A stretch of 64,000 bases of DNA from Mobula hypostoma (lineage: Eukaryota). The notes beneath the pieces are model-generated. The model saw nothing but the letters and a program-made list of their open reading frames with translations, searched no databases and had not been told where the DNA came from. Location: positions 69,504,001 to 69,568,000 of the forward strand of contig NC_086108.1 of NCBI RefSeq assembly GCF_963921235.1, read 5' to 3'. Of the stretch, positions 31,335 to 59,427 are shown piece by piece. How positions within the stretch are numbered: the stretch's first letter is position 1; every line of letters starts with the position of its first letter. Position numbers and translations under genes: made by a program.

Positions 31335-31437
31335 AAGTAACACATACAAAATGCTGGAGGAATTTAGCAGGTCACACAGCATCTATGGAGAGGTAATAAA
31401 GAGTCGGCGCTTTGGCCCGAGGCCCTTCATCAGGACA
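31335..31437 (-). mobile_element. Penelope pLTR fragment with broken hammerhead motif
   Basis: Minus strand gtcctgatgaagggcctcgggccaaagcgccgactc...; the GAAA core is lost. Confidence 0.7.
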
Positions 31438-31791
31438 GTTTCTCAGCCTCTCTACAACTGAAACTAACTTGTTTTCTATGTTTCCCTGTTCTGGTAAAGA
31501 TGTATACATTAACTTGGTTTCTCTTTCCACAGAGACTGCCTAACCTGCTGAAAGTTTCCAACAATTGCCAATTTTATTCCAGATTTCCAGCAGTGGTTAT
31601 TTTGGTTTTCAAGTTAAATGTTGGCCTTTTCAAAGAGGGAATTTGAAGGGGGCGTCACGTGATGACGTGGGATTGAGACGTGTAAATTCAGCGCTCCCGC
31701 AACAAATCAGTAAAGTATCGTTTAAATAAAACAAAGTTGGTAAATATTTTTTGAAAACTATTTATAAACTTTGTTTAGACTACTTTACGGT

Positions 31792-32895: not shown

Positions 32896-33371
32896 AGATG
32901 AAGATTGGGTTTAAGAATGGATTTGTTGGATTTTTGAAGCTGGATGAATGTATAAATATAGTATTAATTATATGGTTATGGTTATATGGTTAATACTGGA
33001 GGAAATTAGCTGGGAATAATAATACTAATTTTGTTTATATATATATATATATATATAAAACTTTTTTTGTTGCGGGGGAGCTGGAAGAAGCACTGATCGA
33101 TTGCTACGTTAATCATGTGTGCAAGCGTGGCTTTTGCCGCGACCCGTAAAATGGAGGGGGGTAGTGTTGTGTATCTTTTCATTCACAACATTAGTGGGGG
33201 GGTATTTTGTTTTTTCTTTTTTTTCCTATCTTTTTTTCTCTTTTTGCCTGGAAGGTTGGGGGGGGGGGGGGACACATAGCATCATGGTGAAGTTTAAAGT
33301 GATTCCCCAAGGAACTATGAGAGTTGAGAAGATAAGTAATGTTTTAGATTGGAGTAACTTTGTTAAGAATA

Positions 33372-36300: not shown

Positions 36301-37997
36301 TCACGAGTGGGTGAGAAGTACCAGACAACGACCAGGGTGGAAAGGTACGATCAGCGGGAACCCGGTGTGTGTCCGCCCTTGCCTGGGTGCCGGGTTCACT
36401 GCAGAGGATCGACCACATCTGGAGGAGGGGTCACAGTCGGTGACATCACCAAGGACCCACCCAAAAGTTGCTTGTGAGCAATCTCGTCGGTCTGTGAGTG
36501 AAGCCGTTCTGAATGATCAGTTGTTCCTGTTCTATCTCTCTCTTCCCCCACGTTGTCCATCGCCATGGCAACGATTACTGCGAACTGAACTGGACTGAAC
36601 TTTGAGTCATTTTGAAATTTGGTCATTTACCCCTAGACAACGATAGAGCTTGATTGATGCTGTTATCTTAATTCTGTGCACATGTGTGTTTATCATCGCT
36701 GAACTGTTGCATTTATTATCCTTTCGATTACTGTGTTGCTTGTTTCTTTAATAAAACTTTCTTAGTTCTAGTACTCCAGACTCCAACTGAGTGATCCATT
36801 TCTGCTGGTTTGGCAACCCAGTTACAGGGTACGTAACATTATAAAGCAAATCAACTTAGATTTATTGCATCTTTTTTCGATGATCAAAAACCAGCATGGA
36901 TTAAAATAGAACTAGACAAGATAGGAGAAAATAAACCTGAAGATTTTATATATAAATGGGAATCTAAATGGATACTGGAAAAGAAAGAATCTCCTATATT
37001 AACACACTTGATTGATCTATGGAATAAGATAAATGTTGATAAGGAAACACAGAAATCTCTATTAGCAAGGAGACCTTTGTTTCAAAACAGACTTATTCCT
37101 TTTACAATGGACAATCAACTTTTATATAATTGGTACCAAAAAGGGATTAAATTTATAGGAGATTGTTTTGAGCGAGGTATATTGATGTCATTTGAACAAT
37201 TAAAGGATAAATATAAAATATCTAATAATACTTTCTTTTGCTACTTTCAGTTAAGGGCTTATTTAATAGGTAAGCTGGGTCAAACAATGTTTTTGCCAAA
37301 AGCTAATGAAATTGAAATTTTAATTCAAAAAGGGAAAATTAAAAAATTTATTTCTTGTATGTATAATTTGATTCAAGAACAGACAATTAAACAAGGAACC
37401 CATAAGTCAAAGCAAAAATGGGAAACAGATCTGAATATTAATATTGATGAAATAAATTGGTCAAGACTTTGTCTGGACAGTATGACAAATACAATAAATG
37501 TTCGACTTAGATTAGTACAATATAATTTTTTACACCAATTATATATTACACCACAAAAAAAAAATAGATTAAATTCAAATCTATCTGATAAATGTTTTCG
37601 GTGTAATCAAGAAATTGGTACTTTTTTACATTCTACTTGGTCTTGTTTTAAAATTCAACCCTTTTGGATAAATTTAAGAGTCTTATTGGAACAAATTACT
37701 GGAATTCAACTTCCACATAACCCTGTATTATTTCTATTAGGTGATATTGAAGGGATAAAACCGAAACTTAAATTGAATAAATATCAGAAAGAATTTATAA
37801 AAATTGCATTGGCAGTAGCTAAGAAGACTATAGCAGTTACTTGGAAATCTGATTCGTATTTAAGTATGGATCGTTGGAATAATGAAATGGCGAGTTCTAT
37901 TCCACTTGAAAAAATTACTTATAATTTAAGAGATAATTATCTAACATTCTTGAATATTTGGCGCCCTTATTTACAAAAGATAGGATGTCATATTTAA
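33372..37997 (+). pseudogene. L1 ORF2p (APE, RT, CCHC knuckle), disrupted
   Basis: ATG 33372 (SFNVNGLN); in-frame TAA at 33456-33458; GGDFN, SDH, YRPISLLN, RQGCPLSP, LFADD; +1 frameshift in the A-run ~35725-35731; LTR insertion 35995-36838; CFRC...H...C; stop at 37997. Confidence 0.95.
35995..36838 (+). mobile_element. Solo LTR (844 bp) inserted in L1 ORF2
   Basis: TGTGACG...CGTAACA termini; 4-bp TSD CTAT/TTAT (1 mismatch); AATAAA ~36750; removal restores the L1 frame KNYY|KANQLRF. Confidence 0.92.
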
Positions 37998-38929
37998 GTG
38001 CTCCGACAAAGAATTTGGTTACTTGGGGAAAATAACGAATAATTATACCAAATTTATTTTGAATCCCATGGAGCATGTGGAAACCTTCCAATATCCAGGC
38101 GGCTCTTCTTTCTTTCTTTTTTTTTCCCCTCTTTTTTTCTTTTAGGTAGGACTATATACATGGGGGGGGAGGGTTAAGGGGAGGGGGGGTGGGTAGATTT
38201 TATCTTTTCATGTATTCTTTTTGAAAATTTAATAAAAATTATATAAAAAAAGAGGGGATTTGATACACAACTATGAAAGTCCATAGTGAAACCTTACTTG
38301 CCATGTTGTGAACTTACTGGAAGGATAAGAGAGTAAACGTCAATGTCCTTGGATAAGTGATCCATAGGCAGTGAACTCTCCAAGGTTATCGTGTACTTCA
38401 AATACATGGCATTCACTTGCCTGACACCAGAATCCCTAATACGCACTCTATTCAAAGTTCTGTCATGGGAAGAGATCACCAAATGGGCAGAGGAAAAGAT
38501 TTTTGTTTGTGCTCAAAGTTTTCTTGACCAACACTATTAACTCTTCAGAATATCTGGCCAATGAGCACTCAAAATGTTGAGGAAGCACCTAGGATCGTAT
38601 TGAGAATCTTAAGGATATACAGTCAGGAGCAGACAAAGGACCTGGACAAGCAATAAAAATCATGGCTGACACCACAAACTACTCATCCACGTGCTCTCTC
38701 ACCTTGCTGCTTATATGCAAGATATGCCATTCTTACACAGGCCTCATTCACCACTACAGAACCTACAAAACTGAAGTAAGTATACCCCTCCCCCCAACCC
38801 CACCAACCCTGAGGGGCTGCCTGTAACATGTCAGGTGCGATTCTTGTTTCCACACCATAAATTGTATACATTTTCAAGAAAGGGATGCAGCAAAGATTCA
38901 TCAAATTGCTTCCTGGATGGTAGGTCCGT

Positions 38930-39295
38930 CAAACAAGGAGAGACTGAGTGGGCTAAACCTCTATTCTCTAGGAGGCGCAAGACTATTCAGCACCTCAAAT
39001 CCCACCAAGGTAGTCTACAACCCAGTAACATGAGCACTGGATTCCCCGATTTCAGCTAACCTGCTTCCCATCTTCGCCTCTCTCATTTTCATGATCTACC
39101 TAGCTCCTCTTACACTCACCACACCCCTTCACAGACTCCATCACCATTTCTTTCCCCTTTTTTCTCTCTTCTACCCACCCCATCTGCCATCACCCATGAA
39201 ATCTGCCCACTGAGTCCCCCCCCCCCATGGCCCACTCTACCACCTTTATTTGCTTCTGTGTTCCACCCTCCTTTCCTATCAGATTCCATCATCTG
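38930..39295 (+). mobile_element. Old Penelope 3' fragment
   Basis: cagcacctc...ggtagtctacaacccagtaacatgagcactggattc followed by a C/T-rich pLTR-like tract, as in 22303-22700. Confidence 0.5.
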
Positions 39296-40684
39296 CAGAA
39301 AAGAAATAATCAACTGGACAAGCTAAACACATTTTTATTTGTCCAACCATTGCCTACTAAACTCTGACTGAACAAACAAATAATTTGCTGCAAGACTCAC
39401 AAAGATAATGAAAAGCAGTTGTCCCATCCTCCATTTTCATGTAACAGTTCTGTTTATTTTTGCTTTAATGTTTTCCACTGATCTGGCAGACTTAAACTCA
39501 CTATCAAATTAGTCTTTGAACTTGTCAGACTGTATTTCCCCTTGCCCATATTAATAAGCTATGATTATTGGCTATCCTGAATTACTCTTAAAATCTACAT
39601 TTCAAAAAAGAAAACAAATTTTAATTTGTGCTGTAAACAATTACATTACCACACAGAAGGAACTATTGATATTAATTTGTGAAAATTGTACAAGGTACAG
39701 AGTTTCTGACCACAAAATCTTACACCTCATCACATTCTTGAGTCAACATTTCCATTACAGATTGTGATGTTTATCTATACTAGAACGACCCTCATCCATT
39801 ATGGCATGAACTTTACAGGCAGCACAAGATCTTCACGGAATACTATTATAGTGTGCTCAGACCAATTATATAATGGTGACTTGGGACAGATGAGAGGTTC
39901 TTAAGCATTTTAGAAGTCAGTGTCTCAAGTGATATATGGTGAAAATTAAGTGTTAAAAGCTGTGGCATTTCCAGTTTCACACTCTCCAGGTAGTGGAGCT
40001 CCAAAAGAAAAGGACTACTTCCATTTCAACCTCACAAGGACTGAATGCACAAATGTTTCAAGTCTCTAAAGAATAATGTATTTTTTACTGATATGCTGTT
40101 CTGCATTTCATTTTGCGTTGTTCTGTGCGAGCTGCTTGTTTTCTGCTATGTTTGGGTTACTGTTGAAGATAAGAGATAGGAGAATTGTGTGCCATCCAAT
40201 TAGGATGGTCGGATTAAGGGGAGGTTTCTCTGGTGAGGGACATTAAGGTTGGGCTTGGGGCTTTTGTGAGAGGGAGATGAAGAGAGAAGATGCCAGAGAA
40301 AAGAGGTCGTAGGATTCGACCCCGAGTGGGGCTGTGATATGACAAAGTCCGGGGTAATCAGTGGAGGATCGGAGACGGGGAAACAGTGAGCACCAATTAT
40401 TGCACATTAGACTGTTTCATTAAAATGGGTCCTTTTCTTTTTTCTGTTCTTTCCTTACTAACCCTTTAGTCAAATTACGAACTATCAAGCTAATTCTTCT
40501 AATTGTATGTGTTGTGCTGCCTGTTATTTCATGGCACTCATTTGTAACAGGGGAACGAATTACACAGCATCCACACAAACATGGAGTCTTGGGGTGGGCT
40601 CACTCCTCAATCTCACACATGCGGCAGGGCTGGAGATTCTCTTCCCTAGAGTTACACAGCCGAGGAAACCAGAGTGTTTCATTG

Positions 40685-40702
40685 TGGGGGTTCATCCAGG
40701 AT
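40685..40702 (+). other. Primer-binding site complementary to tRNA-Pro 3' end
   Basis: TGGGGGTTCATCCAGGAT vs canonical PBS-Pro TGGGGGCTCGTCCGGGAT: 15/18 match, all differences are transitions; 3 nt after the 5' LTR CA. Confidence 0.82.
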
Positions 40703-40811
40703 ATATTTCGTTGGATGCTGTGTGATTGCCCTGAGCATTGATCCAGTGGGTTGTGTATTTAAGTCTGTGCTAAACTATTGTCCGGTAAAGTGATTACAAT
40801 ACGTGGTTGTG

Positions 40812-41780
40812 GATGCTGCCGGGGTTGAGCGGTGGTGCAAATCCATGTGGTTACTGGTAACGAATGCGTGTGTGTTGAGTGGGGTAGACATTCGTATCCA
40901 TGATCAATTATTAATTCGAACCTTGATGCTGTTAAAGCAGTAGGAACAGTTACAATTGTGGAGCGGAGGTTTGATAAAATGGTGGACAAAGACTTTGTTT
41001 TAGTCCAGACTAGCGCTGACGTAACAGCAGTGGAACTGCCTGGTACTATTGGGGGCCCCAGGAGAGGGGGGGCCATGGGCTGTCCACGCTTTCCGGGAGG
41101 AGGAGAGTGTAGCAGAGCGGGCCAAATCGCAAGCCGAGTCTCTCATAGCTGGGGCCAGAAACTTCAAAGACTGGTTGCTCCCGTTTCTGCAGAGCAAAGG
41201 GAAGGAGTGGTCTGATTTGGAATGTCTAATGAGTCCCCAATTTATTTGCCAGGGAGGTGAAGAGTGGGACTTCTGAGTTGGTATTCACCCTTACCTCCCA
41301 GTGCCCAGGCAGAGGATCCTGGCTATTCTCTGGAGAGAAGCCCACCCCCGAGGGGGAAGAAGAGTATGAGTTTTGGGCAGAGCAGGCCTCTCAGTTGTTA
41401 GATGAGTGGCAGTGATTTGATGATGTAAAAAGACAGCGATTGGTTGAGCATCTGAGAGGCCGGGCTGCTGACGTGGTGAGAGCTGTAAAGACACAGAACC
41501 CCTTTGCCACCTCTGCGGCCTACATCCAAGCACTAGAAAAGGTGTTTGGCACGACGGGAAGCCCAATGGAGCTTATGACAGGGTTTCAGAACATGTGTCA
41601 GGAGAAGAGGTCTGCCTACATTTTTCAGCTGGGAGGCAGCTAAATTGCTTGCGGCCTAGAGGGGTCATTCAGATGGCTGAAGTGGATCAGTTAAGAATGG
41701 ACCAAATAGCAAAAGGCACCCAGTCCCAGGATCTGACCGCTTGGGGTCTTCGACTGTCTCATAAGATTCGCCCCCCCTTG
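40812..41780 (+). pseudogene. PNMA-like Gag remnant
   Basis: VERWCKSMWLLVTNACVLSGVD, SGEKPTPEGEEEYEFWAEQASQLLDEWQ, KRQRLVEHLRGRAADVVRAVK and YIQALEKVFG, with stops and frameshifts. Confidence 0.8.
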
Positions 41781-41899
41781 GGGAAGAAAGAGGAGACAAA
41801 AGGAGAGGATGGTAAAGATTATCTTAGCCCTTTGGAGCCTTTTGGAGCGAGATGGGATGCGAAATGTGAAGAAAAAGAAGAAATGTAAAGAAATGTGAA

Positions 41900-44284
41900 G
41901 TGCCTGTGCTGGCTTTTGCAGACCCCCAACTGCCGTATGTACTACATACGAATGCCAACAGAGGGGGCTTGGGGGTGTCCTGTATCAGGATCAGGGCACT
42001 GGGTTGAGACCTGTTGCGTTTGTCAGCCGGAGTCTGTTGCCCTCCGAGAAAAACTATCCCACACACAAGTTGCTGGCATTGAAATGGGCTGTGGTGGATA
42101 AGTTTAGTGACTACCTCTATGGTGCCAAATTTGAGCTGAGGACGGACAACAATCCCCTAACTTATATCCCGACCTCGGTGAAATTGGATGCCACAAGCCA
42201 TCAATGGTTGGTGGCATTGTCTGCCTATGATTTCAGCCTGAAGTAACGGCTGGGAATTAGGAATACTGATGCCAACGTTTTGTCCTGACGTGCTCATGAA
42301 GGGCTAGGCAGGGACAAAGAGTGGGAGAGCGGTTCCTGCCCCGGGAGTGAAAGCTAGGTGCCAGTTTTCCATCACGGTGAAGGCAGAGGGAAGGCAAGGG
42401 CAGGATTGAGCGGTAGGTCAATTGGGAGCCTCAGATGGCACAATTCCACAAGCTTTCTCTAACCTGACTGCTCTGAAGACAAACCAGCTGCCAGAATTGA
42501 GCCTTGGGGAAGTGGCAGCTGCCCAGCGAGATGACCATTTGGTCAGCGGTCGAAAAGGAGACATGGCTCAAGCGGAGAGGACAAAACATACTGTGGTGTC
42601 TCAGTTACTGAATGGTCCAGATTGGAGTTGAGGAACCAGATCCTATACCGGGTCACGACGTCTTCCGACCGACCTCGGCGTTCCCAGCTGGTTCTGCCTG
42701 AGAAGTATCGGAGGAATGTGCTGAAGTCACTTCATGATGATTCTGGCCATTTGGGGGTGGAAAAGACTTATGGATTGCTCAGCGATTGGTTCTACTGGCC
42801 CCGAATGAAGCTAGAGGTCGAAGAGTACCCCAACTCGTGCATTCGATGTATACGGAGGAAGACGCTGACTACGAGGGCCGCTCCGTTGTTCCACTTGCAG
42901 AGTGCGGTGTGTATGGATTTGACCTGGTGTGTATGGATTTCCTGTCAATAGAGGCAGATGCCAGCAACATGGCACTGTCTTGGTCATTATGGATCACTAC
43001 ACCAGATATGCATAAGCCTTCCCTACCAAGGACCAGAGGGCGTCCATGGTGGTCGAAGTGTTATGGGAGAAGCACTTCATTTATTATGGCCTCCCCAGGG
43101 GGATACATAGGGATCAGGGACGGGATTTCGAGAGTAGGCTCATACATGAGTTACTGAGCATGCTTGGAGTAGAGAAGTCTAGGAGTATGCCTCATCACCC
43201 ACAGGGTGATTCCCAGCCCAAAAGGTTTAATCAGACCTTGCTAGACATGCTCAGAACCTTGGAGATCAGCAAAAAGAACAAGTGGAGTCAACATATTGGA
43301 CATCTGGTCCACTGCTACAACTGTAGACAAAATGAAGCTACTGGGTACTCACCATATTATCTGATGTTTGGTTTTGAGGTGAGGTTGCCCATCAACCTTT
43401 GTTTTGGGACTGACGAGGATGACCTACCACCAAAGATTTATCAGAAGAACGTGTCTGATATGAGAAGGGAGCTGAAAAAGGCTTATGAATTAGCTGAGGT
43501 CACGGCTGCCAAGCAGAATCAAGGAAATAAGAGGAGGTATGATCAAAAGGTGAGGTTCTCCCAACTCATGCCGAGAGACCGAGTCCTCATAAGGAATTTG
43601 GGGCTACCTGGGAAGTATTAGTTGGCTGACCGCTGGGCAGCTACACCCTATGTAGTGGAGAGTCAGATGCCAAACATACCAGTTTTCTGGGTGAAAGCAG
43701 AGGATGGGACTGGGCCTGTCAAGATTCTCCATCAGAACCACCTTCTACCTCTGGGACAAGAGGTGCGTGTCGACCCAGAGCCTGACCTGGACCGTATACC
43801 TAGTAGGAGGACTCTGCGGTGACACGGAGAGACTGAAGGACCAGCAGCAGGGAGACAGTAGACGGACCCCGCCGCTGAAAGGGATACGGAGGATCCGAAA
43901 ATGGGGGTGTGGTATATGCTGCCTTTTGCTAACTCCCCACTGACTGAGGAAGAGATTCCTAACCCTTCTCACACTGAGGCAGATGAAAACTGTGGACAGG
44001 CCAGGTTTCAGCGGGACCAGGAAGAGGATGAAGCAGAACTCAGCCCAGTGGTAGAAGGATCCGAGTTGCAGGAGGGCATGAATGATAGACCAGGGGAGGC
44101 CTCGCCAGACAGACCAGCAGTATTCCATGGAGTGTCGGAACCTGTAGAAGTAGATAATGGGGTAAAAAGATCTCAAAGAATCAGGAGACCCCCAGATAGG
44201 CTGGCCTATGTAGCATTGGGCAAACAGAGTGCTATGGATATCCCCCTAGTGAGATATGTCACTACCAAATACAAACATTTGTAG
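41900..44284 (+). pseudogene. Gypsy pol remnant: RNase H, integrase HHCC and core
   Basis: RPVAFVSRSLLPSEKNYPTHKL..ALKWAV..RTDNNPL; HDDSGHLG...YWP...SCIRC; IHRDQGRDFES, HPQGDSQPKRFNQTL, TGYSPYYLMFG. Confidence 0.9.
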
Positions 44285-44380
44285 AGTGGAGGTTCTGACA
44301 TCACGAAATTCCTTTGAAAATGGTGTTATTAGTGACGGCATGACAAATTATTTCAATCATGAGGACATGGCTATTTTGGT

Positions 44381-44389
44381 GGGGGAGAA
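44381..44389 (+). other. Polypurine tract of the Gypsy element
   Basis: GGGGGAGAA immediately before the TGTAAT start of the 3' LTR. Confidence 0.8.
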
Positions 44390-45034
44390 TGTAATGCGCT
44401 GGTACTTATATTTTGCTGTTATGTTGTTCTGCATTTCATTTTGTGTTGTTCTGTGCGAGCTGCTTGTTTGGGTTACTGTTGAAGATAAGAGCTAGGAGAA
44501 TTTTGCGCCATCCAATTAGGATGGTCGGATTAAGGGGAGGTTTCTCTGGTGAGGGACACTAAGGATGGGTTTGGGGCTTTTGTGAGAGGGAGATGAAGAA
44601 AGAAGATGCTGGTGAGAAGAAGTTGTAGGATTCGACCCAGAGCAGGGCTGTGATTTGACAAAGTCCGGGGTAATCACTGTAGGGTCAGAGACGGGGAAAA
44701 CCCTGAGCTCCAATTTGTGCACGTTAGACTGTTTTTTTAAAATGGGCCCTTTCCTCTTTTTGCTGGTTAGTCAAATTACGAACTATAAAGCTAATTCTTT
44801 TAAATGTATGCGTTGTACTGCCTGTTATTTCGTGGCACTCATTTGTAACAGGGGAACAAATTACACAGCATCCACACAAACATGGAGTTTTGGGGTGGGC
44901 TCACTCCTCAAACTCACACGTGTGGCAGGGCCGGAGATTGTCTTCCCTAGACTTACACAGTCGAGGAGACCAGAGTGTTTCCATAAGGACAATTGATATA
45001 CAAGTCACCAAGTCACTACTTACACAGAAATAAC

Positions 45035-45625
45035 AAGGGATTGAGTTTAACAGCCATAAGATAATGTTACAGCTCTACAAGACCCCACTTGGAGTACTGT
45101 GCTCAGTTCTGGTCACCTCACTACAGGAAGGATGTCGATACTATAGAGAGAGTGCACAGGAGATTTACAAGGATATTGCTTGGATTGGGGAGCATGCCCG
45201 ATGAGAATAGGTTGAGTGAACTTGGCCTTTTCTCCTTGGAGCAACATAGGATGAGAGGGGACTTGATACAGGTATACAAGATGATAAGAGGCATTGATCA
45301 TGTGGACAGCCAGAGGCTTTTTCCTGGGGCTGAAGTGGCTAACATGAAAGGGCATAGTTTTAAGGTGCTTGGAAATGGGTACGGTTGGGGGGGGCGGGGG
45401 GAATGTCAGAGATAAGTTTTTCACAGAGTGGTGGGCGCATGCCAGTGACAGTGGTAGAGGCGGATACAACAGGGTCTTTTAAGAGACTCTTAGATAGGTA
45501 CATGGAGCTTAGAAAAATAGAGGGATATGCACTAGGGAAATTCTAGGCAGTTTCTAGAGTAGGTTGCATGGTCAGCATAACATTGTGGGCCGAAGGGCCT
45601 GTAATGTGCTGTAGATTTCTATGTT
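45035..45625 (+). mobile_element. CR1 LINE 3' end (same family as 14227-14970)
   Basis: LEYCAQFWSPHYRKD...RGDLIQVYKMIRG; ends ...gggcctgtaatgtgctgtagatttctatg. Confidence 0.9.
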
Positions 45626-46824
45626 AACCCTAATCCTACTTGAAAATGCAAACCTCAAGAAATCCAGAGTATGAAGAGCTGGCAAAAAAAAAAAACAACT
45701 GAAGCTAGAAAGATGGGCATAGGGAATCCTAGCAATGATTGGATTGTACATCATAGAATTATAGAGTCATACCGCACAGCACAGCACTGAAACAATCTCT
45801 TTAGCTGAGTCCATGTCAGCCATCAAGTACTCACAGGGTGAATGTACAAACTGAACAATTCTGACAATATCAGAAGTCTGGATGAAAACTGTTGTGAACC
45901 ACCAAGCTGGTTTTGCTCAGTACTTAACAAGAGCTCTGCAGTTTGAATTACAAATCTGCCCAACCTATGGACTCTGGCACAACCAGACTACTGTACACTT
46001 GAGAAGATTTCAACTAAAATTTGGAGCCAGATTTGTTGATTCTACCAAGAAAGATGGGTAATCAAGTCATGAGGATAGAGGAAGCCTGCATGGGAACATA
46101 GGTGGATTAAGGAGTAGGCAAGAAGTTGAGAGATGTAATTTAACATGGGAAAATATAAGATCTTTACGGCAAGTACCTTGAAAAGCTTGTACTTAGAAAT
46201 TCTGGACTTTACTACAAGGGATAATGGGTATAAAACTAGGGAGGGCCTGACCAAGAAGTAATACATGTAGTTTTGGCTTCTATAGTTAACGTACACTCAC
46301 AGACACAATTTAAATAGCCAATTAACCTAACCAACCCCGTCTTCGGGGTATCAGAGGAAAACAAGAGCACATGGAGGTCACAGGAGAAAATGGAAACACT
46401 CAAAGAGAAACAGGTAACTGGCATTGTGAGGCAGAGATTCAACAAATGTTCATCAAATGCTTACATTGGTAGCAATCCAGTTGGAAGCTAGAACTAAAAG
46501 GTTGATCAACGATGAAGATTAGGCCTAAACTCACTGGAGTTTAACTGAATGAAAGGTAATCTTATTTATACACAAACTCTAAAGGGAAATGGCAGTATGG
46601 ACTCTTCCTGTAGGAATGGTAGCTAGAAGCATAAGGCATAGTTTCGGAGTAAGAGGTCACCCATTTCAGATAATGGATATCCTCTTGCTCTGTGAATTTC
46701 TTCCCTCGCATTCATGGCTCTTTGGAATTCTCCACCTTAGACAGCTGTGGAGGCAGAATAACTATCAATTGCCACATCGACTATTCATACATTTATTGTA
46801 GAAGGGAGTCATGGCATGGGGAGA

Positions 46825-47353
46825 ACATAAGAACATAAGAAGTAGGAGCAGCAGTAGGCCATTTGGCCTGTCAAACCTGCTCTGCCATTCAGTAAGATCA
46901 TGGTTGATCTGGCCATCCTTTACCATTTAAATAATCATCTGATCTTCCATTTTTCCTTCCAAAGTGGATGACCTCGCATTTACCAACATTGTACTCCATC
47001 TGCCAGACCCTTGCCCACTCACTTAATCTATCTATCTCTCTCTGCACGATCTCCTTATCTTCTGCATAATTTGCTTTTCCACTCACTTTAGTGTCATCAG
47101 CAAACTTGGACACACTGCACTTGGTCCCCTCTTCCAGATCGTTAAGGTATATTGTGAACAGTTGCAGGCCCAGCACCGACCCCTGTAGCACACCGCTCAC
47201 CACTGATTGCCAACCGGAGAAACACCCAACTATCCCAACTCTCTACTTTCTATTGGTTAACCAATCTTCTACCCATGCAAATACATCAGCTCCGACTCCA
47301 TGCATCCTTATCTTACAGATATCCTTTATGTGGCACCTTATCGAACACCTTCA
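46825..47353 (-). mobile_element. CR1 RT fragment joined to a 3' tail (internal deletion)
   Basis: SGVLQGSVLG..FTIYLNDL..SKFADDTK..WQMEYNVGKCEVIHFG; (ttcttatg)n tail at ~46825-46840. Confidence 0.85.
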
Positions 47354-47473
47354 GGAGAGCACAGGAAACTGATGTTGAGGCAAGGGTGACTCAGGCATAA
47401 TGTTACTGAATGGTAGAACAGGCTTGAAAGCCTAAATAGTTTACTCCCGCCCTGTTTCAAATGTGTTCATGCA

Positions 47474-49066
47474 TAGTGCCTATAAAGAGTATTCATCACC
47501 CTTGGAAGTTTTCATGTTTTACAACATTGAATCAGTGGATTTAATTTGGCTTTTTTTGACACTGATCAACAGAAAAAGGCTCTTCATGTCAAAGTGAAAA
47601 CAGATCTCTACAAAGTGATCTAAATTAATTACAAACATAAAATACAAAATAATTGATATGCATAAGTATTCACCCCCTTTAATATGACACACCAAATCAT
47701 CACTGGTGCAGCTAATTGGCTTTAGAAGTCACATGATTAGTTAAATGGAGATCACCTCTCGGCAGTCAAAGTGTTTTAATCGATTATAGTAAAAATACAC
47801 CTGTATCTGGAAGGTTCAGTGGGTGGTGAGTCATTATCCTGGCAAAAACTACACCATTAAATCAAAAGAACACTCCAAGCAATTCTTCACAAAGGTTATT
47901 GAAAAGCACAAGTCAGGAGATCGATACAAGAAAATTTCCAAGTCACTGAATATCCCTTGGGAGTACAGTTAAATCAATCATCAAGAAATGGAAAGAATTT
48001 GGCACAGCTGTAGTTCTGCCAAGAGCTGCCCGCCCTCAAAAACTGAGTGACCATGGAAGAAAGGGACTAGTGAGGGAGGCCACCAAGAGACCTATGATGA
48101 CTCTGGAGGAGTTACAAGCTTCAGTGGCTGAGAAGGGAGAGACTGCACATACAACAACTGTTGCCCGGATGCTTCACCAGTAGCAGCTTTACGGGAGAGT
48201 GGCAAAGAGAAAGCCAGTAGTGAAAAAACACTCACCTGAAATCTCAGCTAGCGTTCACCAGAAGGCGTCTGGGAGACTCTGAAGTCAGCTGGAAGAAGGT
48301 CCTAAGGTCTCATGAAACCAAAATTGAGCTATTTGACCTTCAGACTAAATGTTCTGTTTGGTGTAACCAAACACCACATATCATCAAAAACACGCCATCC
48401 CTACTGTGAAGCATGGTGATGGCTGCATCATGCTGTGGGGATGCTTCACTTCAGCAGGCCCTGGAAGGCTTTTGAAGGCAAAGGGTAAAATGAATGCGGC
48501 AAAATACAAGGAAATCCTGGAAGAAAACCAGATGCAATCTGCAACTTTTCCTGTAAAACAATGACTCCAAGCATAAAGCCAAAGCTACACAGGAATGGCT
48601 TAAAAACAACTAAGTTAATGTCTTGGTGTGGCCAAGTCAGAGCCCAGACCTCAATCCAATTGAGAATTTGTGGCTGGACTTGAAAAGGGCTGTTCACTCA
48701 CAATTTCCATGCAACCTGACAGAGCTTGAGCAGTTTTGTAAAGAAGAATGGAGAAAAATTGCAGTGTTCAGATGTGCACAGCCAATAGAGACCTATCCAC
48801 ACAGACTTAAGGCTGTAATTGCTGCCAAAAGTGCATCCACTAAATACTAACTTGAAGGGTGTGAATACTTATGCAATTATTTGGTGTTTTATGGTTGTAA
48901 CTAACTTAGATCATTTTGTAGAGATCTGTTTTCACTTTGACACGAAAGAGTCTTTTTTTGTTGATTAGCGTCATAAAAGCCAAATTAAATCCACTGTGGT
49001 TCAACTTTGTAAAACAATAAACCATGAAAACTTCTGGGGGGGGGGGGTATATTTCTATAGGCACTG
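47474..49066 (+). mobile_element. Tc1-like DNA transposon with ~200-bp TIRs and decayed transposase (~47858-48850)
   Basis: TIRs tagtgcctataaa.../...tataggcactg|TA; ETKIELF, VKHGDGCIMLWGCF, WPSQSPDLNPIENLW and RLKAVIAAKSASTKY* motifs. Confidence 0.92.
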
Positions 49067-50302
49067 TAAGATAAGCTTGTGAAATTGTAAATTTTAATGT
49101 ACAACTGCTTCTTGAATCCTGTTATTCAATGCTCAATTTAAAATAGTTTATTAACCACCCTTCTATCTCCCTTGGTAACTCTTTTCTTCTACTCCTCCTC
49201 CTTGATATCCTCAATATTCTATCAATAAGATAGCCAAGTAAAATGCCCCAGCACACAGTAATGATATTGTTGGACTTGTAACCAAGGTATCTGGATTAAT
49301 GATCCAGAAACAAGAGTTCAAATCGTGGAAGTAATTATTTGGTATAGAAGACTGTTATTAGTGACTATGAACCTTCCCACTTGATCTTAAAATCCCATCT
49401 AGCTCTTTAATGCCCTGTAGGATAAGAAATTTGTTAACTACACCTGATTTGGCTTATGTGATTCCAAGCAATGTAATTAATTCTTGTGCATTGTGGGAAG
49501 GCTGGTAAAATATTTAATTCAAGGGTAATTAAGAATGGGCAATAAATGGGATATTAATTTCTTGTGGAAGGATAAAAATATAATGGTGTTTGCACCATAA
49601 TGCAAATTATCTTTCTAATTAAACATTAGATAAAATAGCCAGCATTTTTACAACAGAGACGTCTCTACCATCCTGCTCCAAACTAAACAGTTTTATCACA
49701 TTTCAAGATAACCAAATATTTCTTAAACAGGATGTTTTTTAGTCTTATGTCTTTCCCCCCTTTCCAGTGTCCAACCACGACATTCAGATTTAGTTAAAAT
49801 TTAACTTGAAGCTTATGGAAGATCTGCACTTAAAGGTGCTGGACTTCCTTTACAGTCACAGAAGCACTGAAGTGGCAAACAGGACACGTTATATTGGGTT
49901 TCTTAAAATTTATCTATTTTACACACATCATCCTAACCACATTATATTACAAATGCTTCAGAATCAGGTTTAATATCACTTGCATACGTTGTGATATTTG
50001 TTGTTATGTGGCAGCCGTACTTTGCAATAAATAATAATTGTAAATTACAGTAAATATATATTTAAAGTTAAATTAAATTAGTGCAAAAAGAGGGAAAAAA
50101 GGAGCGAGTTAATGTTCATGGGTTTAATGTCCATTTAGAAATCCAATGGCAGAGGGGAAAAATTATCCATTCCAAAATTATTGAGTGTATGCTTTCAGGC
50201 TCCTGTACTCCCCCCTAATGTTAACAATGAGAAGAGACCATGAGCTTTAATTACTAATTCATCTCTCTTTGCTTTTTTTCCCCCCACACTAAAAACTGAA
50301 TA

Positions 50303-51671
50303 CAGTGGATTCTGGTTAATTGGGCAACCTTCTTATGAGGAAACTCTTAAAAAACAAAAACTAATCAAGAAAATAGCCGGGATTCCTTTCGTTTACTTAG
50401 GACTTTCGTTTACTTGGCTACGGGGATCAGGGGGTATGGAGGGAAGGCTGGTGCAGGGTTCTGAGTTGGATGATCAGCCATGATCATAATAAATGGCGGT
50501 GCAGGCTTGAAGGGCCGAATGGCCTACTCCTGCACCTATTTTCTATGTTTCTATGACTCTATATCACTTAATTGGGGCAGGGGACTGTTGCCAAAAATTT
50601 TCTAACTAGTGTCACACGTCTGCAGTTGTGTGGCGTTAAGACACTACATTGTGCTTGAAGCGAACAGTTTTTAAACAGCGCCAGTTGTGTGTGCTTCTTC
50701 TTTAAAAAAAACAATAATTTTGTCACTGACAGTTGGCAAGAAATAAGCAGTAAGACAATTCTGAACTGTTTTTCTCACTGCAGTTTCAAGCATTCAGGCT
50801 TGGAGATGTTGGACATAGTCGGGAATGAAAATGAAACTATTTCACTACTTCATTAAGTTAGGAACTTTTGAAAAATTTAAAGATACCTTGAATGTTGCAA
50901 TGTAAGTAGAGATTTGGAGGATGCAATCTTTGCAAAATTGTATGAAGCCAGTCCATTATCTGCACTAGGTGTCTTTGCTGCTTTGTTCACTTATAGTAAA
51001 TCTAAAGAACACCGCAGCATAAACTCAGCTCTCACCTGTACTGCAAAGAGCTGTTGCATACAACAGCGGGCACACCCCAGTACATCACTTCGACAGGTGG
51101 GCTAAGTCAGGTGAGGGGAGCTGGCAGGTTTTTTATCCTGGTGGGATAGGGACATTGCTTATCCTAGCATGCAAAGTCTGCTCTGGCAGACTGGGCGGAT
51201 GAAACCTATCCAATGGCCAGGAAGGGGGTTCTGCAAAGCTTTGTAGAGAGTGAAGAGCATAACAAGGCACAATCATAGTCAACCACTGCAACCAAGGAAC
51301 AGCAGTTGTGACAACCTTCATACAATTGAACCCGGACTTCCAAGGTTCGTAAGTGGAAATGCCCCAGTACAACGGCATTTCCCCACTTGAAAAACTTTCC
51401 CACCCAGGTTTCCTGTCATCGTCAGGTACAACAGACAACCACCAAACCAATTATTAGGACCTAATGCACAGTTTTATAGTACTGTAGTAGTATTAATAAT
51501 GTTCAAATTTGTTCTGCATTTCATTTAAATACATAATTTGTTACTCAGTTAAATGGTAGTTTGTGATTTTTTTTCATACCTTTTTAATTAATTTTCAGCT
51601 AATTGGGGCAGCCACTTAAATGGGCTAAAATGTATTGATCCTAATGTGTCCCAATTAACTGGGATCCACAG
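50303..51671. mobile_element. Tc1/mariner (Tigger/pogo-like) MITE carrying a CR1 3' end (~50420-50555) and an unexplained ~430-bp insert (~51021-51450)
   Basis: TA|CAGTGGATTCTGGTTAATTGGG ... CCCAATTAACTGGGATCCACAG|TA inverted ends. Confidence 0.75.
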
Positions 51672-52539
51672 TATACGGAGTACTGAATATATAGTATATA
51701 GAAGCATCTCTTCTTTTTGAGGAAGATACAACTAACCCAAGGTGACAGAGGTCCATAGTGTCTGTTACCATGTGTTATGGTGGTGGTACTGTTCTCACCG
51801 TATACTAAAGCTGTACTCAACATTCTGATACAACCTCTGAACCACATTTATGAATGAAATACCCGGGTACTCGATAGTCAACTAGTGAGCTGAGTGGAAT
51901 AAAGTCCATGAAGGAATAGCGAAAAGTCACTGAATCAAGGCTGTTTACCTGCAACAAAGTAAAGAAATTCAGGAGGTAGTGACCTAGCATTATAAAATAG
52001 CCCGATGCTGAGGAGATGGAATCCCTTTCAATTGGGAAAGATGCTCATCTGGTAATGCAGGCAATGTCAGTGCAGTCTATGGTATCTAACCTGAAAATGA
52101 CGTGCAGGGAGAGCCTGATTTATTGTGTTTCTTGTCCATTTGGGAAAGTACTTTAGCAGTTCCTCCTGGAAAGAGAATTTCAGAAATCTCCACCATGCAA
52201 CGGTTGCAACTGTGAGAAGTTGCTCATATCAAAGCTGAAGTCGGAAATGAGTACATCTCACTCAAGACATCATTTAATCAATATCATCCAGTGAAGAGTA
52301 AATTACATTGGAAAGGCGGTTCTTTCTCAGAAGGATATTAGAGAAGCAACAGGGGCTTCACAAGGATCCTATGCTTTCACTATTAATGAAAATAGCCATA
52401 TTTTAAAATTCCATTTTTATTTGATTACATAAATTTAAATTCCCTGCTGATATAGTGGGATTCAAATTCATGTCTTAGGATTAAGAGCTCAGACCTCCTG
52501 CTTGTTACCACTCCGTCACTAGAAACTCTCCTGATCATC

Positions 52540-53040
52540 AACTTCCATCCCACCAGATTCCACATTCAATTGCTCATCCTTTCACTATTTCCATCACCGC
52601 CAAAGAGATCCCCACCATCAGATATTTTTCCCATTCATCCTCTTTCAAAACTCTTAAGGGGCCATCCATTTGTAATTCCCCGATCCGCTCATCAACCTTT
52701 CCCTTACTCAAGCTGCTTTCCATGCAATCTGATGCTTTGGCCCTCTACTTTCCACCATCCAGAGACCCATACCGTCACGACAGAGAAGATGTCATTCATC
52801 TGCAATCCTTCCAATCAAGTGTACAGCTTTTCATGATGCATTCTCCTCTACATTGCAGATAAAAAAGACTAGGTGCAGTATACAGAGGTGAACCTGATCT
52901 TCTAGTTGCCAACACCTGAATTTTCCATCCCACTCCTACTCTAACCTCTTGTACTGCAGGTCACCAATCTGTCATATTAACTCAGTTTTACCCTCCACAC
53001 AAATATGTCGAGACTTACTGAGCACTTCCTAAGCTTTGCA
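52540..53040 (+). mobile_element. Highly decayed Penelope RT-end/GIY-YIG fragment
   Basis: Remnants such as ttcatctgcaatccttccaat..gtgtac, ctctacattgcaga and gttgccaacac.tgaattttccatcccactcc, consistent with GIY-YIG coding sequence. Confidence 0.45.
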
Positions 53041-53734
53041 TTATATATTTCTTTTAATACATGTCAATTAGTTTGTGTCATTCTCTAACTACTCTCACTA
53101 AACTGCAACTAGGTTTCATCAACAGCTTATGATCATGCCTAACCTGACCTTCCCTATCAGATATTCCCTTTGCCCTAATGGAAGTCTTCAGCTTGAAAGA
53201 TTATTTTTATTTCTCTTTTCACAAAAGCTGTCTGACTTGCTGAGTTTCCAGCATTTTCTGTTTTTAATAATGGTACTACTTTTTATAACTATATTTATAT
53301 AACACATTAATAAATTCAGATCTGAAATTATTCCATACTTGTGAAACCCCCTTTTACTGGGCATCTCAGAAATGCGGCTCGTTAGCCCCTAACAGCCGCT
53401 GGACTCCGTGGCGAGAAACCCCAGGCTTCATATGTCTAGGGTGTATACAACTTCAGCTCCGCCAAATCCCTGAAGTTGGGATGCCTCACCCACCCAAACC
53501 CAAGTTTGCGTGACTGCTGTGTGATTTACTGCCCCTGCAATAAATAGCCCGTCGGCAAAAAAAAACCAGCTTGTACACTGCATACAATTATAAAGAAGTA
53601 TACTTAAGAATGTTAACTTAAGCAAACAGTTAATGGAAAGAAAGATAAAAAAACAAAAAGGGCCCATTATTCTTGTCGTTCACTCATGCGCTGGACCCTC
53701 AGTCTGTGCGAAAGCACACACCACCTTTTGAAAG

Positions 53735-54101
53735 CAAACAACAGGAATTCTGCAGATGCTGGAAATTCAAGCAACACACATCAAAGTTGCCGGTGAACGC
53801 AGCAGGCCAGGCAGCATCTGTAGGAAGAGGTGCAGTCGATGTTTCAGGCCGAGACCCTTCGTCCCATGATCCTCTCGTATCCCCTTTTGCCTATCACCTG
53901 TCCAGTTCTTGGCTCTATCCCTCCCCCTCCTGTCTTCTCCTATCATTTTGGATCTCCCCCTCCCCCTCCAACTTTCAAATCCCTTACTCACTCTTCCTCC
54001 AGTTAGTCCTGACGAAGGGTCTCGGCCTGAAACGTCGACTGCACCTCTTCCTACAGATGCTGCCTGGCCTGCTGCGTTCACCAGCAACTTTGATGTGTGT
54101 T
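53735..54101. mobile_element. Penelope-like fold-back element with 15-bp TSD
   Basis: TSD ACCACCTTTTGAAAG at 53720-53734 and 54102-54116; 53773-53863 is an inverted copy of 54011-54101. Confidence 0.92.
54005..54040 (+). ncRNA. Minimal type I hammerhead ribozyme motif, core intact, predicted cleavage after C54036
   Basis: AGTC-CTGACGA-AGG-GTCTCGG-CCT-GAAA-CG-TC-GACT: stem I AGUC/GACU, CUGANGA, stem II AGG/CCU, GAAA, palindromic ACGU stem III, GUC triplet. Confidence 0.82.
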
Positions 54102-54519
54102 ACCACCTTTTGAAAGTTGCTCGAAATCCATCTTGAACAAACAGATCTCCCATGGGAGTATTGGTCCTTCCTCCTTGAACCCATTCATCTGCACAAAGCA
54201 CCTTGTGCAACAGGGACAGAATCCTCAGCTATCTTCCCCACTGTGTTCTCCCAGCTCCCGCCAAAAAAAACCTCTCCACACCACTGTTCACCAGAACCTT
54301 CTCCCAATTCCACCATCCTGATTGGCTGACACCACATTCCTAAGGTGTACAACAAAGCCTCTTACCTCAGCTCAAACCCAAACAGGGTGAAAGCAGGCAG
54401 ACTGCTGTTACAGAACTGCTAAAATTATACCCACAGCATAGCAGTAAAAACTCTAATCAGGGCGTTACATTTGCTTTACCTTGATGATTCATTGATTCAG
54501 CAGAAATGGAGATATCTGT

Positions 54520-55515
54520 CAGGTCCTCACTCATCAAGGGATCAGTGGTGTTATCATTTCAGAGGACCTGTCCTGGGACCAACATGCAAGTGCAACTACA
54601 AAGAAAGAATAGCAACCCCTCTACTTTCTTAGGAGTTTGTGAAAATTCAGCATGACATCTATAACTTTAACTAAACTTCTAGGTGTGCAGTGGAGAGTAT
54701 ATTCACCGGCTGTATCGAAGCCTGGTATGGAAATGAAAATGCCCTTGAACAGAAAATCCTACAAGAATAATGGTTTTGGCGGACTCCATCAAAGCTAAAG
54801 CCCTCCCCACCACTGAGCACATCTACACGGAGCGTTATACATGGATTCCCACTGCTACCTGTAAGGAGTTTGCATATTCTCTTTGTAACTGCATGGGTTT
54901 CCTCCCATAGTCCAAAGATATACTTTTTGGTAGGTTAATTGGTCATTGTAAATTGCCCCGTAATTAGCCTAGGTTTAAATCAGGGGATTATTGAGTGGTG
55001 CAGCTTGAAGGGCTGGAAGGGCCTTTTCCAGGCTGTATCTCAATAAAATAAAAAAAATATATAAAGCAGCATCCATCACCAGGGCCCCCACCACCCAGGT
55101 CTTGCTTTCCTCTCGCTGCTGCCATCAGGGAAGTGGTACAGGAGCCTTAGAACTCACACCACCTGGTTCAGGAATAGTTCTTACCCCTCAATCATCAGGC
55201 TCCTGAACCAGAGGGGATAACTTCACTTATCCCATCACTGGACTGTTTCCACAACCTATGGACTCACTTTGAAGGACACTTTATCTCATGTTCTCAATAA
55301 TTAACGCTTATTTATTATTATTATTTCTTTTTTTCATTTTTGTATTTGCAGTTTGTTACCTTTTGCACACTGGTTTGTCCACCCCTGTTGGTGAGGTCTT
55401 TCATAGATTCCATTATGGTTATTGGATTTATTGAGTATGCCCACAAGTAAATGAATCTCCGGGTTGTGCAGTATATGGTGACATTTATATACTTTGATAA
55501 TAAAATTTACTTTGA
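54520..55515 (+). mobile_element. Rex-Babar 3' fragment interrupted by a SINE (~54838-55060)
   Basis: VESIFTGCIEAWYG ... KAASI..GPHHPGLAFLSLLPSGKWYRSLRTHTTWFRNSSYP; the coding text is split by an A-tailed SINE. Confidence 0.75.
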
Positions 55516-58500
55516 TTACTTCTTTGTTAGCTGCAATTCTGAACTGCTTGTCTCATCACCCCACCCAAGGGAGCTGAAAAACTCCAAATACAGAAAGCAT
55601 CCAAACCCAACATAACCAACATTTAATGGTTACATTAGCACTGCCGCAAAGTAACACTGCCTAGAAATTCTTTAGAATGTGCAGTTCTTTGCCTAAACTG
55701 TCAAAGCCAATTATTTTTGACAATGTGATTAAAGTGGCTATCAATAAATCCTCCACCCATGAACTTAATACAAGACATATGTGTTTCTATGCAAAGAAAT
55801 CCTGAATTCCAACAAACATATTCATCCACTTGCACACAATTTGTGGCTTACAAGTCTGATTACCAGGCTATGGGGATCAATCACAGGGATTACCAGGTCT
55901 TTATAGATAGTGATGCTGCTGCAAAGTAACCTTATCATTAACCACGTGCATACATGTAATTGCGCACAGGATAATAAAGTCGATTTTTTGACTTTTGATG
56001 TTACTCGTTTCAACAGCCATATTCTCTCAAATTAACCAATTTTCAAAAAAGGAAAAGCAGGGAGAAGAGCATGCAATTAGGATGTGAATTAGAACCATGT
56101 GCCAGTGCACGTCATCAGTACAGTGAAATGACTAATAACTTTGGTTTACGGCAAACTTGACTCAGTAGAGATGCATTGCCTCATCTACATTACATTTCTC
56201 TCCAGTTCTCATTTTAGACATGAAAGTTTAACCAATCTAAAGCCAACAGAATGAAACATCACACAAATAAAGAATGTTAACAATGAATTGCATCAATCAT
56301 ACAGAAGGATTGTGTCAAAACCTGGCTAGCCAGAATCAAGAAATGTTTTAAAGATGGACAAGGGCCAAAGTGTTACAGATGTTACACTTGCAGATGTAGG
56401 GCTCAAAGATCTGAATTCACAGAAAAGGATCAACAATTAAATAGTTCACCAGGCTAGGCCAGATTTAATTGGATTTCTACTTTTAATATAACTGATCTGA
56501 GGGAGGTGATTGCATTCCCAGAAAATGATCTGTACTATAATTTCCCGTAACATGAAGCCAAATCATCAGTGCATGAGTCAAGAATTAGGAGTTTAAAAAA
56601 AAATAAATTTTTGTGTTGATTTGATCAGACATAAGCATTGTACCAAACTCAGGCCATCAAGAAACAAGAGATGTTTTAAACATGGACAAGAACCAGGTGG
56701 ATCTTATGTCTTGAGAAGTTGGGAAGATTGTAGCCAATTCCTCAAATTCCCTGACTTCCCTCAGCAACAAAACATTTTGAATTCTCCTCTCAAGGCTTGA
56801 ATGTACTAGGATTGTGAATGGCCAGTCACTGAGTATATTAAAGGCTAAATCTGATAAGATTTATGGACACTGTAATCAAGGGATATGACTAAAGGCATAC
56901 TATCGGCCATGACATTACCGAAAAGTGGAGGAACTTTGAAGTGCCATGTGGCTCATTCCCCTTTCATCTCTTTTGTTAATCCTGAGAAGTTTCAGCTGCT
57001 CCTCTTAGAGTGCTTAAAACATTAGCTCAACCTTTCTGCATCTTTCTTGTCATCGGCAGCTTTCACTTAATAACTACGTCCATTGTTGCCTCAAGCCCGA
57101 TTGTGTGAAGAAACTGGAATTTCAAGCCAACTTGCTAGCTTTTGGAATGAAACCTTCAATAGGATTTAGTCTTAGCTCAGTTATCACTTTGGAATAAATA
57201 GGTAGTAGATGGCCATTCAAAAGCTTGTTACACGTTTTTGTTTAAATTCAGTGCCACATAGGAAATATCATACTACCACAGTTTTTATCAGAACCATTCA
57301 TTTAAAGAGTCATCAATGCTTTCAGGTGAACACAAGTATCACACATTACCACTTAAAAACGAGCTGCTTTTCCAGTGCCTCGATCATGTTATCCTTCAAC
57401 CACTATCATTAACACAAATAATTCTTTCAGTTATGACAATGTACATGACACTTCAATGTGTGAAAACTGGTGCTGAATTTCATTACATCACATCAATGAG
57501 CAGCTCACTGACTGCAAATTACTTTGAGATGATGTTGGTATATTTTTAAAAAGGGTATATGAAAGGGAACAATGTCCATAACTGATACAGATAGTGCACA
57601 GCATTTCCCTCTTGCACTATTATAAATTATACTGTAATGCACGTCCATCAGAGTAAAGGCCACAATTTAAAGTTCACATGGAAAGCAAACTTTATTTCAA
57701 GAAAAACAACGCTGGCCAGCTTAAAATGTATGAACAATTTACTAATTTGTAAATGAAATCAGTTATCGTCATAAATAGCTGCATCTATCCGGATTCCCAG
57801 GAAGAATAATTCAGCAGTTACCTCAAAAGGTGACAATTTAGTTCAGTGGGTGAACGTCAGAACTATCATCTGGAGTCCAAATTATGCAACAGCAACACAG
57901 CTTTGTATGAGAATTTCTCACCTTCCACGTGACTCTGCACTATACACCTCCTCCACTAAGACGGTGGTTAAGCAACATATTGGAAGTCCTTTTCTCAATC
58001 CATTTTGAAATCTGGCATCAAATGCACAAATGTAATCTGGGACTATTTTTTTCCCCCACCCATATTGTGTAAAAACCTCCAGACTCCCGTTTCATAACTC
58101 TCCATTATAGTGTGATGAAAACAGAAGTGTTAAATGCATTCAGACAACCTCGCATTTGACTATCAAAATGCATTTCCCTTCTGAAGTAACCAAATATTAT
58201 TCAAAATCAAACAAATTTAATAATTTATCTAAATTACACAGTATCTTGAAAATCTGCAGTATCCACTCAATAAAAACAGACCCTGTAGCACTGGCAAATG
58301 GTGTTTTTACTGCCTGCTGTACTCAGCAATTCCGTTTTTGAAAACTGAAGCAAAATTTTTATATATATCAGAATTGCAATAATTTACAGTATTTAAAGGT
58401 ATTAAGAGTAGACATTCTCAAGCTGGTATGATGATGCTGCTAAATATAACCAAGGTAAACGGAAACAGAAGAATGAGTGGGAGGGCTCATGAAAGAATAT

Positions 58501-59427
58501 CAAATTGTACAGATTATAATATTTTGCCAAAAACCTCAAAAGACATATTAAGCAAAAATATTAGATTTGCTCTTATAATTCTCTTAGGAAGCTTTCATAA
58601 ATGTAATACAATCATTCATTTTGAATTGAATTCTACCACACAATAACAATGCAGCTACATTTCTCTGAGCTATCCTAGCTGCGTCATGCAATTGAAATCT
58701 GGTATGATGTTTAATGAAAGAATTTCACTTTGGAGCTGGTCATGATATGGAAATCCTAATGACGTTTTATCATTCATAACCAACAATAAAAAAGGTAATG
58801 TTTGCCCCTTACTATCCCCTCTTCAACTATGCTACCATCTCCATTAATGACATCTTAGTAGCTGGGGTAAACAGAACTTAATTTTAAGAAACGGCCTCCT
58901 AAACTGTTTATTGATTAACTAATGTTGATTGCTGCAAGTATCCTTAGAGCTGAGAATAATTCGATGCTCACAGGGAATCTGACAAACTGTATTAGACTCT
59001 TAAATATCAATGTGCTTGTTGATGCCTCAAGCAAAAATATTAAGCAAAAAGCTCTTGTACAAATTTTGTTCAAGCTAAAAAGTCACTGTACTTGAACAAT
59101 TAGAAAATATGCATTTGATACAACAGATTCACTATTTAGGTAATTTTTCAAATTTTTCATCTGTCTTAATAGGTATATTTGAAAATTATAAAACTTATTT
59201 TTCACCAACAGTAATCCGTATTTTTCATCTTGAAAAACAGCTACTGCTTGGCTTCAGTGAAAATTCTGCATGACCTACCTGACAGTTATCCTAACTAAAA
59301 CCCTTCACGGACAGTAAAATCAGCAAAATCTCAGCATCTGAAAAACAGTCTGAAAATCCAGCAAGGACAGCATGACTTTGCAGATGCTGATCACTTAACT
59401 TAAACAAGTGGTGCAATTAATACTTGC

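Follow-up and report, generated by a model that had tools for sequence, protein, structure and literature searches.

The hammerhead motif at 54005..54040 of the window, a 64,000-nt stretch of the Mobula hypostoma genome analysed as a whole, very probably belongs to a young, 5'-truncated copy of a Penelope-like element (PLE), which carries an intact hammerhead in its 3' end, lies antisense in an intron of EPS15 as a head-to-head pair with a target-site duplication, and is likely inert. The boundaries of the insertion, its duplication, parent element, strand and copy number are established by direct observation (Table 1). Minimal hammerheads in Penelope elements are already published, and the present copy is an ordinary one. 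The locus itself matters little: its orientation is wrong, and identical passengers number in the tens of thousands. The family, on the other hand, offers a convenient test bed, with one young lineage of a single defined sequence, partial tandems and enormous copy numbers, for asking whether PLE hammerheads cleave in vivo and what this costs the host.

Table 1. Positions in the window of the insertion, its hammerhead and the surrounding intron
Feature	Position	Strand	Remarks
EPS15 intron hosting the insertion	25705..59427	-	about 33.7 kb with approximate ends; placed by tblastn with ray EPS15 proteins
Left target-site duplication copy, 15 bp	53720..53734	+	identical to 54102-54116
Optional 38-nt tail of the Penelope-like element	53735..53772	-	left arm only; matches the longer 3' end class
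Inverted pLTR arm	53773..53863	-	sense to EPS15; 91 bp, 97.8% identical to 54011-54101
Right arm	53861..54101	+	final 241 nt, non-coding (3' end/pLTR), from a 5'-truncated PLE assigned to the Neptune type
Minimal type I hammerhead motif	54005..54040	+	predicted cut after C54036; 32,886 exact genome copies
Hammerhead stem I; core; extra A	54005-54008/54037-54040; 54009-54015; 54016	+
Hammerhead stem II; GAAA; ACGU	54017-54020/54025-54028; 54029-54032; 54032-54035	+
Right target-site duplication copy, 15 bp	54102..54116	+	identical to 53720-53734

Anatomy of the insertion and its parent element

The insertion spans 367 bp (53735-54101), is flanked by an identical 15-bp target-site duplication, and consists of two head-to-head 3' ends of one Neptune-type Penelope-like retroelement. 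Its right arm is 96-98% identical to the 3' ends of the long copies L045-L047 and begins about 150 nt past the stop of the open reading frame (ORF). The left arm starts at G5 of the hammerhead, lacking the 5' strand of stem I, C3 and U4; it carries ACAU in place of ACGU and tests negative for the core. An independent DNA contig from organism A carries the right junction unchanged. The insertion interrupts an older repeat, paralogues of which, in public DNA contigs, continue into sequence resembling the right flank. Aligned to the reference with the insert, an orthologous 162-nt contig from organism B ends its match at 53719; with the insert taken out, the match runs to 53732. Judging by this stopping point, the site is probably empty in organism B.

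The surroundings of close copies are alike over as much as 3.57 kb, with an identity of about 96%. The frame of locus L047 is a single ORF of 614 aa with reverse transcriptase (RT) motifs, a CX4CxxC linker and, at its C terminus, a GIY-YIG domain. Pfam matches to this parent ORF fall below the curated cut-offs, both for RVT_1 (E=2e-4, 21.4 bits against 29.6) and for GIY-YIG (E=5e-4, 20.7 bits against 22.6); RVT_1 was matched in four of five scanned frames and GIY-YIG in one of five, all under the cut-offs. Locus L042 is a partial tandem whose directly repeated hammerheads are separated by 3,489 bp. Most of the 3' ends in 56 young copies belong to one of two classes, and the tail lies on exactly one arm in 9/9 inverted units of the genome sample (120 evenly spaced 10-kb stretches, 1.2 Mb). 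Partial tandem pLTRs, an inverted 5'-truncated arm, a one-sided tail of 30-40 nt and a target-site duplication, the features of Neptune-type elements, are thus all present.

The available descriptions of Neptune-type elements (PMC8557442, PMC3846280) report the layout with an inverted pLTR and a one-sided tail, and tie the Cys linker to Neptune/Nematis. Because both the layout and the linker match, we assign the parent to the Neptune type on the basis of ORF features and layout. The likeness extends to the single ORF, the RT, the DKG motif, a CX2-5CxxC linker and the C-terminal GIY-YIG, as well as to the partial tandems, the inverted truncated arm, the 30-40 nt tail on one end and the duplication; against these descriptions no structural difference was found in the ray element. 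The sequence-only reading had proposed a Penelope pLTR origin and a minimal type I hammerhead of the kind that acts as a dimer, and the RT and GIY-YIG parent and the pLTR location bear this out. Poseidon PAc of Anolis carolinensis (Frangieh et al. 2024, PMC11167929), as far as its available text goes, shares two discrete 3' ends defining the tail, which are explained there by two RT start sites, a pLTR hammerhead, and copying apparently from uncut RNA. PAc belongs to a different clade, whereas the ray element has the Cys linker, and the first ATG of the ray long frame lies about 185 nt past the motif start (judged by eye) instead of at stem II as in PAc. Non-LTR retrozymes, in the accessible part of their account (bioRxiv 10.64898/2026.07.22.740005), likewise carry a type I hammerhead derived from PLE pLTRs; they are built of short head-to-tail units, whereas the ray insert is one head-to-head insertion and shows no such tandem. 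A literature search, with most subscription papers outside it, returned no paper on Penelope elements in Mobula or on Penelope with a hammerhead ribozyme in shark genomes; the element itself may already be catalogued in Repbase or Dfam.

The 5' ends of young copies, taken as BLAST ends and therefore uncertain by a few bases, lie within -4..+7 of the motif start in 16/56 copies and near the cut site in 1/56, and the left arm of the insert starts at +6. Since copies begin at the motif's front edge and not at the cut site, most of the RNA that serves as template is apparently uncut. On the plus strand the hammerhead has a pyrimidine tract with a terminal CAG on either side (53982-54006 and 54042-54056), and the AG of stem I forms an additional acceptor-like site. 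An intron of Drosophila Penelope is described as ending at helix I (PMC4209133, available text), and the tracts beside the ray hammerhead are possibly those of a pLTR intron or a cryptic acceptor.

The hammerhead motif and its family

The letters given by the sequence-only reading for the motif are exact: the window reads AGUC/GACU in the 4-bp stem I, a full core with CUGACGA and GAAA, the ACGU palindrome as stem III, and a GUC triplet with C17 at 54036. CUGANGA, GAAA and an NUH triplet, a stem III reduced to a loopless palindrome at 15.2-16.2, and a stem I of 4 bp plus a possible U.G pair are the marks of min-HHRs, the minimal hammerheads of metazoan PLE pLTRs. The 3-bp stem II AGG/CCU of the same reading fared worse, with a ViennaRNA probability of about 0.02, against 0.86-0.95 for a register with an unpaired A followed by G.U, G-C, G-C and U.G and a CUCG loop. 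This register is the sole one possible in the older CCC copies, and stem II is probably better read as 4 bp closed by G.U next to an unpaired extra A. In copies of the 14-nt class the closing pair beside the extra A was A-U in 25, G.U in 38, G-C in 1 and A.C in 3 of 67 rows, tallied by hand with the inner pairs fixed by the search pattern.

The available text on min-HHRs (Cervera and de la Pena 2014, PMC4209133) describes the same type I architecture without loop III and with the palindrome at 15.2-16.2, the extra nucleotide between A9 and stem II, a stem I of 4-5 bp, the pLTR location, and mostly dispersed single copies of truncated elements with opposite-strand pairs 100-700 bp apart. Their usual closing pair is G10.1-C11.1, whereas the ray motif has G.U in a 4-bp stem II. 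The G.U recurs in 38/49 young copies, while the old-lineage majority carries G-C; as G10.1-C11.1 is a reported trend outside the published search descriptor, we treat G.U as lineage variation and not as grounds for exclusion. An origin of the CCU of stem II by CpG decay of this copy was rejected because CCU is the young-lineage majority. The Rfam search that the sequence-only reading had called for, run on the window and on 53950-54110, gave no match to a hammerhead family at E<=10.

The exact 36-mer has 16,386 + 16,500 matches in the 3.48-Gb genome, against 0 for the reversed pattern, and a pattern leaving N7 and the inner stem II free has 61,094 intact-core matches genome-wide. In the 1.2-Mb sample a structure descriptor found 41 core-plus-stem matches (reversed control 0), and a profile search at E<=0.001 detected 256 copies, young and old (reversed control none), extrapolating to a total of roughly 0.5-0.7 million copies, a rough figure from a sample that over-represents exact copies 1.4-fold; the young lineage makes up 2.46% of the sample. 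A chance origin of the motif, considered as an alternative, is ruled out by the exact and descriptor counts. The window holds 10 profile matches at E<=0.001 and 12 at E<=0.01, of which 54005-54040 is the sole fully intact one, and the bare CTGANGA..GAAA pattern is mildly and weakly enriched there (14 matches against 7.2 expected). The large, abundant hammerhead family with at least seven copies in 64 kb, claimed from the sequence alone, is thereby confirmed. The ray numbers lie far above the min-HHR counts of about 4,000 in coelacanth and 9,000 in Xenopus tropicalis (PMC4209133), obtained by different methods; cartilaginous fish are not named in the available text of that paper.

Other copies in the window include a 135-bp young-family copy at 30068-30202 (+) that starts exactly at the hammerhead, with a tail and a mutated GAAA, and an older head-to-head pair at 22127-22805 of a sister subfamily with a UCCG loop II, whose arms are 94% identical over 176 bp and both have a damaged stem III.

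Preferential conservation of the core among inserted copies was not found in the young copies, the older copies or the genome-wide single mutants. In 49 young copies picked by their flanks, with 10 shared variable sites set aside (none in the core), non-CpG differences affect 10/486 core positions (2.1%) and 47/2445 positions of the 3' flank (1.9%; p=0.86). The corresponding figures in 91 older copies are 119/903 in the core and 246/1624 outside it (p=0.19), and genome-wide single mutants number 179 at U16.1 and 203 at the loop II U (p=0.24). The core thus decays at the background rate, so that nothing singles out the copy at 54005-54040: its motif is intact because the insertion is young, and not because it has been kept.

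Between lineages the picture differs from that among inserted copies. All 12 core positions are equal in the old and young lineage majorities, which differ only at N7 and 11.1, both outside the core, and the motif at 54005-54040 is identical to the young majority. None of the 10 shared lineage-level changes falls in the core, a figure not significant alone (P=0.27). In the older 14-nt class A1.1 occurs in 9/16 rows with U2.1 and in 18/81 rows with C, 17 of these 18 being CpG-type changes, and the U-A form is counted in 7/16 U rows against 1/81 C rows; this stem I tally was made by hand on the first 100 of 179 matches, 3 rows with other letters left out. The compensatory stem I pair between lineages is one event, not many, and in the main 13-nt class neutral and CpG decay drown any covariation. 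The refutation that the sequence-only reading set for itself is thus half borne out: the core is not preferentially conserved among inserted copies, but between lineages the core is unchanged and stem I has changed once in a compensatory way.

This constancy of the core between lineages, the compensatory stem I pair of the older lineage and the A-U or G.U closing pairs found with the extra A in 63/67 rows (a pattern-constrained count) all run counter to the notion that the ray-family hammerhead is non-catalytic even in donor elements and its sequence kept as an RNA start, a protein-binding or a splice signal. We consider this rather unlikely, although the most successful lineage has swapped G10.1-C11.1 for G.U and changed N7 to C, strengthening a decoy helix, copies do not begin at the cut site, a pyrimidine tract and AG motifs flank the hammerhead (53982-54002, 54042-54056), and PLE clades without hammerheads are described as amplifying well (PMC8557442, available text).

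Predicted folding and prospects for cleavage

ViennaRNA, which models secondary structure and leaves the hammerhead tertiary fold and co-transcriptional folding outside, predicts for the plus strand of the whole insert a 91-bp fold-back of -204.7 kcal/mol with a probability of 0.0 for hammerhead stems I and II. On the strand of the EPS15 pre-mRNA the left arm is predicted to pair with the complement of the right arm (-213.9 kcal/mol). Both strands of the insertion would thus fold into the 91-bp duplex, and no hammerhead would form. The self-cleavage that the sequence-only reading considered possible for this copy is not supported, the motif being antisense, without an intact direct-repeat partner in the gene and predicted to be fully paired by the inverted arm. 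On these predictions the hammerhead is likely inert at its site.

Within a donor element that forms a partial tandem, the pLTR hammerheads, some 3.5 kb from each other, may dimerise by their ACGU palindromes and cleave slowly after C17, probably assisted by the protein of the element, and the RNA that gets copied would be mostly uncut. The accessible parts of published accounts report inactive monomers and weak dimers for min-HHRs (PMC4209133), and protein-assisted cleavage of the Anolis-element hammerhead with uncut RNA as the main template in vitro (PMC11167929). Two pairs of exact hammerheads on the same strand, found among the first 100 of the exact matches (C1:5927971/5928431, 460 bp apart, and C1:6075474/6077334, 1,860 bp apart), would be natural substrates for an assay of dimer cleavage.

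Removal of the left arm (53864-54101, 53990-54101) leaves the predicted probability of the hammerhead stems at <=0.002. On its own, the 36-mer is predicted to favour the decoy helix GACG/CGUC (0.96-0.98), a kind of trap discussed for viroid hammerheads (PMC1636495, available text), and the double-hammerhead dimer, at -11.1 kcal/mol, lies 19 kcal/mol above the best dimer (-30.3 kcal/mol) at the level of secondary structure. These predictions, and the cleavage of one in nine Xenopus retrozyme dimers (bioRxiv 10.64898/2026.07.22.740005, accessible part), make it quite improbable that a transcript of the motif's own strand with its start in the insert avoids the fold-back and, together with another pLTR RNA or the protein of the element, cleaves in trans. 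Such a transcript would have the young-lineage majority sequence and tens of thousands of identical partners in the genome; an RNA may begin where the 5' ends of copies cluster, at the motif's front edge, and the related Anolis motif is reported to cleave once protein is added (PMC11167929, available text).

EPS15 and the orientation of intronic copies

The insertion lies between EPS15 exons at 59502-59428 and 25704-25528. All 23 listed exon matches of each of two ray EPS15 proteins (P0009 and P0015) fall in minus-strand frames by tblastn, and the intact hammerhead is antisense to EPS15 because the gene is on the minus strand. The placement in an EPS15 intron made from the sequence alone therefore stands as to the intron, and fails as to the strand. 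The EH2 exon, which lies downstream of the window, has matches among solved structures of EPS15, and the nearest named proteins are those of rays, 98% identical over 46 aa to Mobula birostris and Narcine. EPS15 pre-mRNA would carry only the reverse complement of the motif and the core-less left arm.

A role as a regulatory ribozyme that cuts EPS15 pre-mRNA from within the intron, as a complete core there might suggest, is contradicted by the strand of EPS15 and hardly tenable, the sense arm moreover lacking C3/U4 and stem I, none of the 23 profile matches in the EPS15 coding span being an intact sense copy, and the site being probably empty in the related organism B. The amniote intronic hammerheads HH9 and HH10 are conserved, single-locus, canonical monomers. 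The ray motif shares with them a core inside a host intron, whereas it is a young insertion in antisense orientation with tens of thousands of fellow copies; with this strand and a probably empty site in organism B it lacks the marks of a host-adopted ribozyme.

The reading of the insertion as an antisense passenger can be set beside the strands of other intronic copies. Across the mapped spans of EPS15 (109 kb, window -7324..102042) and EPS15L1 (195 kb, G000:C73:3380123-3575093), 18 copies are sense and 36 antisense. Copies without head-to-head pairs are divided 4 to 22 (p=0.0005), against 18 to 22 for LINE-like fragments and 133 to 132 for a random sample. By gene, the unpaired copies are 0:11 in EPS15, where the pattern was first noticed, and 4:11 in EPS15L1, which alone is not significant (p=0.12). 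Intact copies in the two genes are balanced (3 sense, 4 antisense), and EPS15L1 introns tolerate three sense copies with an intact core, of which two belong to inverted pairs. The antisense excess is a hint that sense copies may at times do harm; cleavage would account for it no better than would cryptic splice acceptors next to the motif or a bias of insertion.

The strand test covers two genes, a third region (C22, 160 kb) having been dropped with only one intersectin-like exon match. This match (C22:28679770-28680012, L231) is an intersectin-1-like EH stretch 88% identical to ray ITSN1; no further exon match lies within the next 155 kb, and it is possibly a pseudogene or a fragment.

We regard as improbable a more far-reaching reading, in which, among more than 60,000 intact-core hammerheads, sense intronic copies without a locking arm cut the host pre-mRNA, as trans-dimers or with the protein of the element, and are purged over time. 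If true, purging would explain the 4:22 ratio, and head-to-head insertion would act as a built-in safety catch. An antisense excess that is genome-wide and tracks core integrity would constitute indirect in vivo evidence of cleavage; a literature search returned no report of an antisense excess used as such evidence for PLE hammerheads.

Further repeats lie in and around EPS15. A near-perfect palindrome of 1,060 bp (97%; L037:9051-10000 + L036:1-110, about window -10950..-9890) lies 3.5 kb beyond the final coding exon of EPS15 and carries two exact hammerheads; its sense hammerhead is intact and lies beyond several AATAAA/ATTAAA sites. A long element at 31768-37997 (+), antisense to EPS15, has an ORF1 and a broken endonuclease/RT ORF2, and we take it from its motifs to be LINE-1-like. 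Direct repeats of about 600 bp (86% identical) surround broken frames at 40079-44981 (+), presumably a decayed LTR retrotransposon with integrase-like frames, to judge again by motifs.
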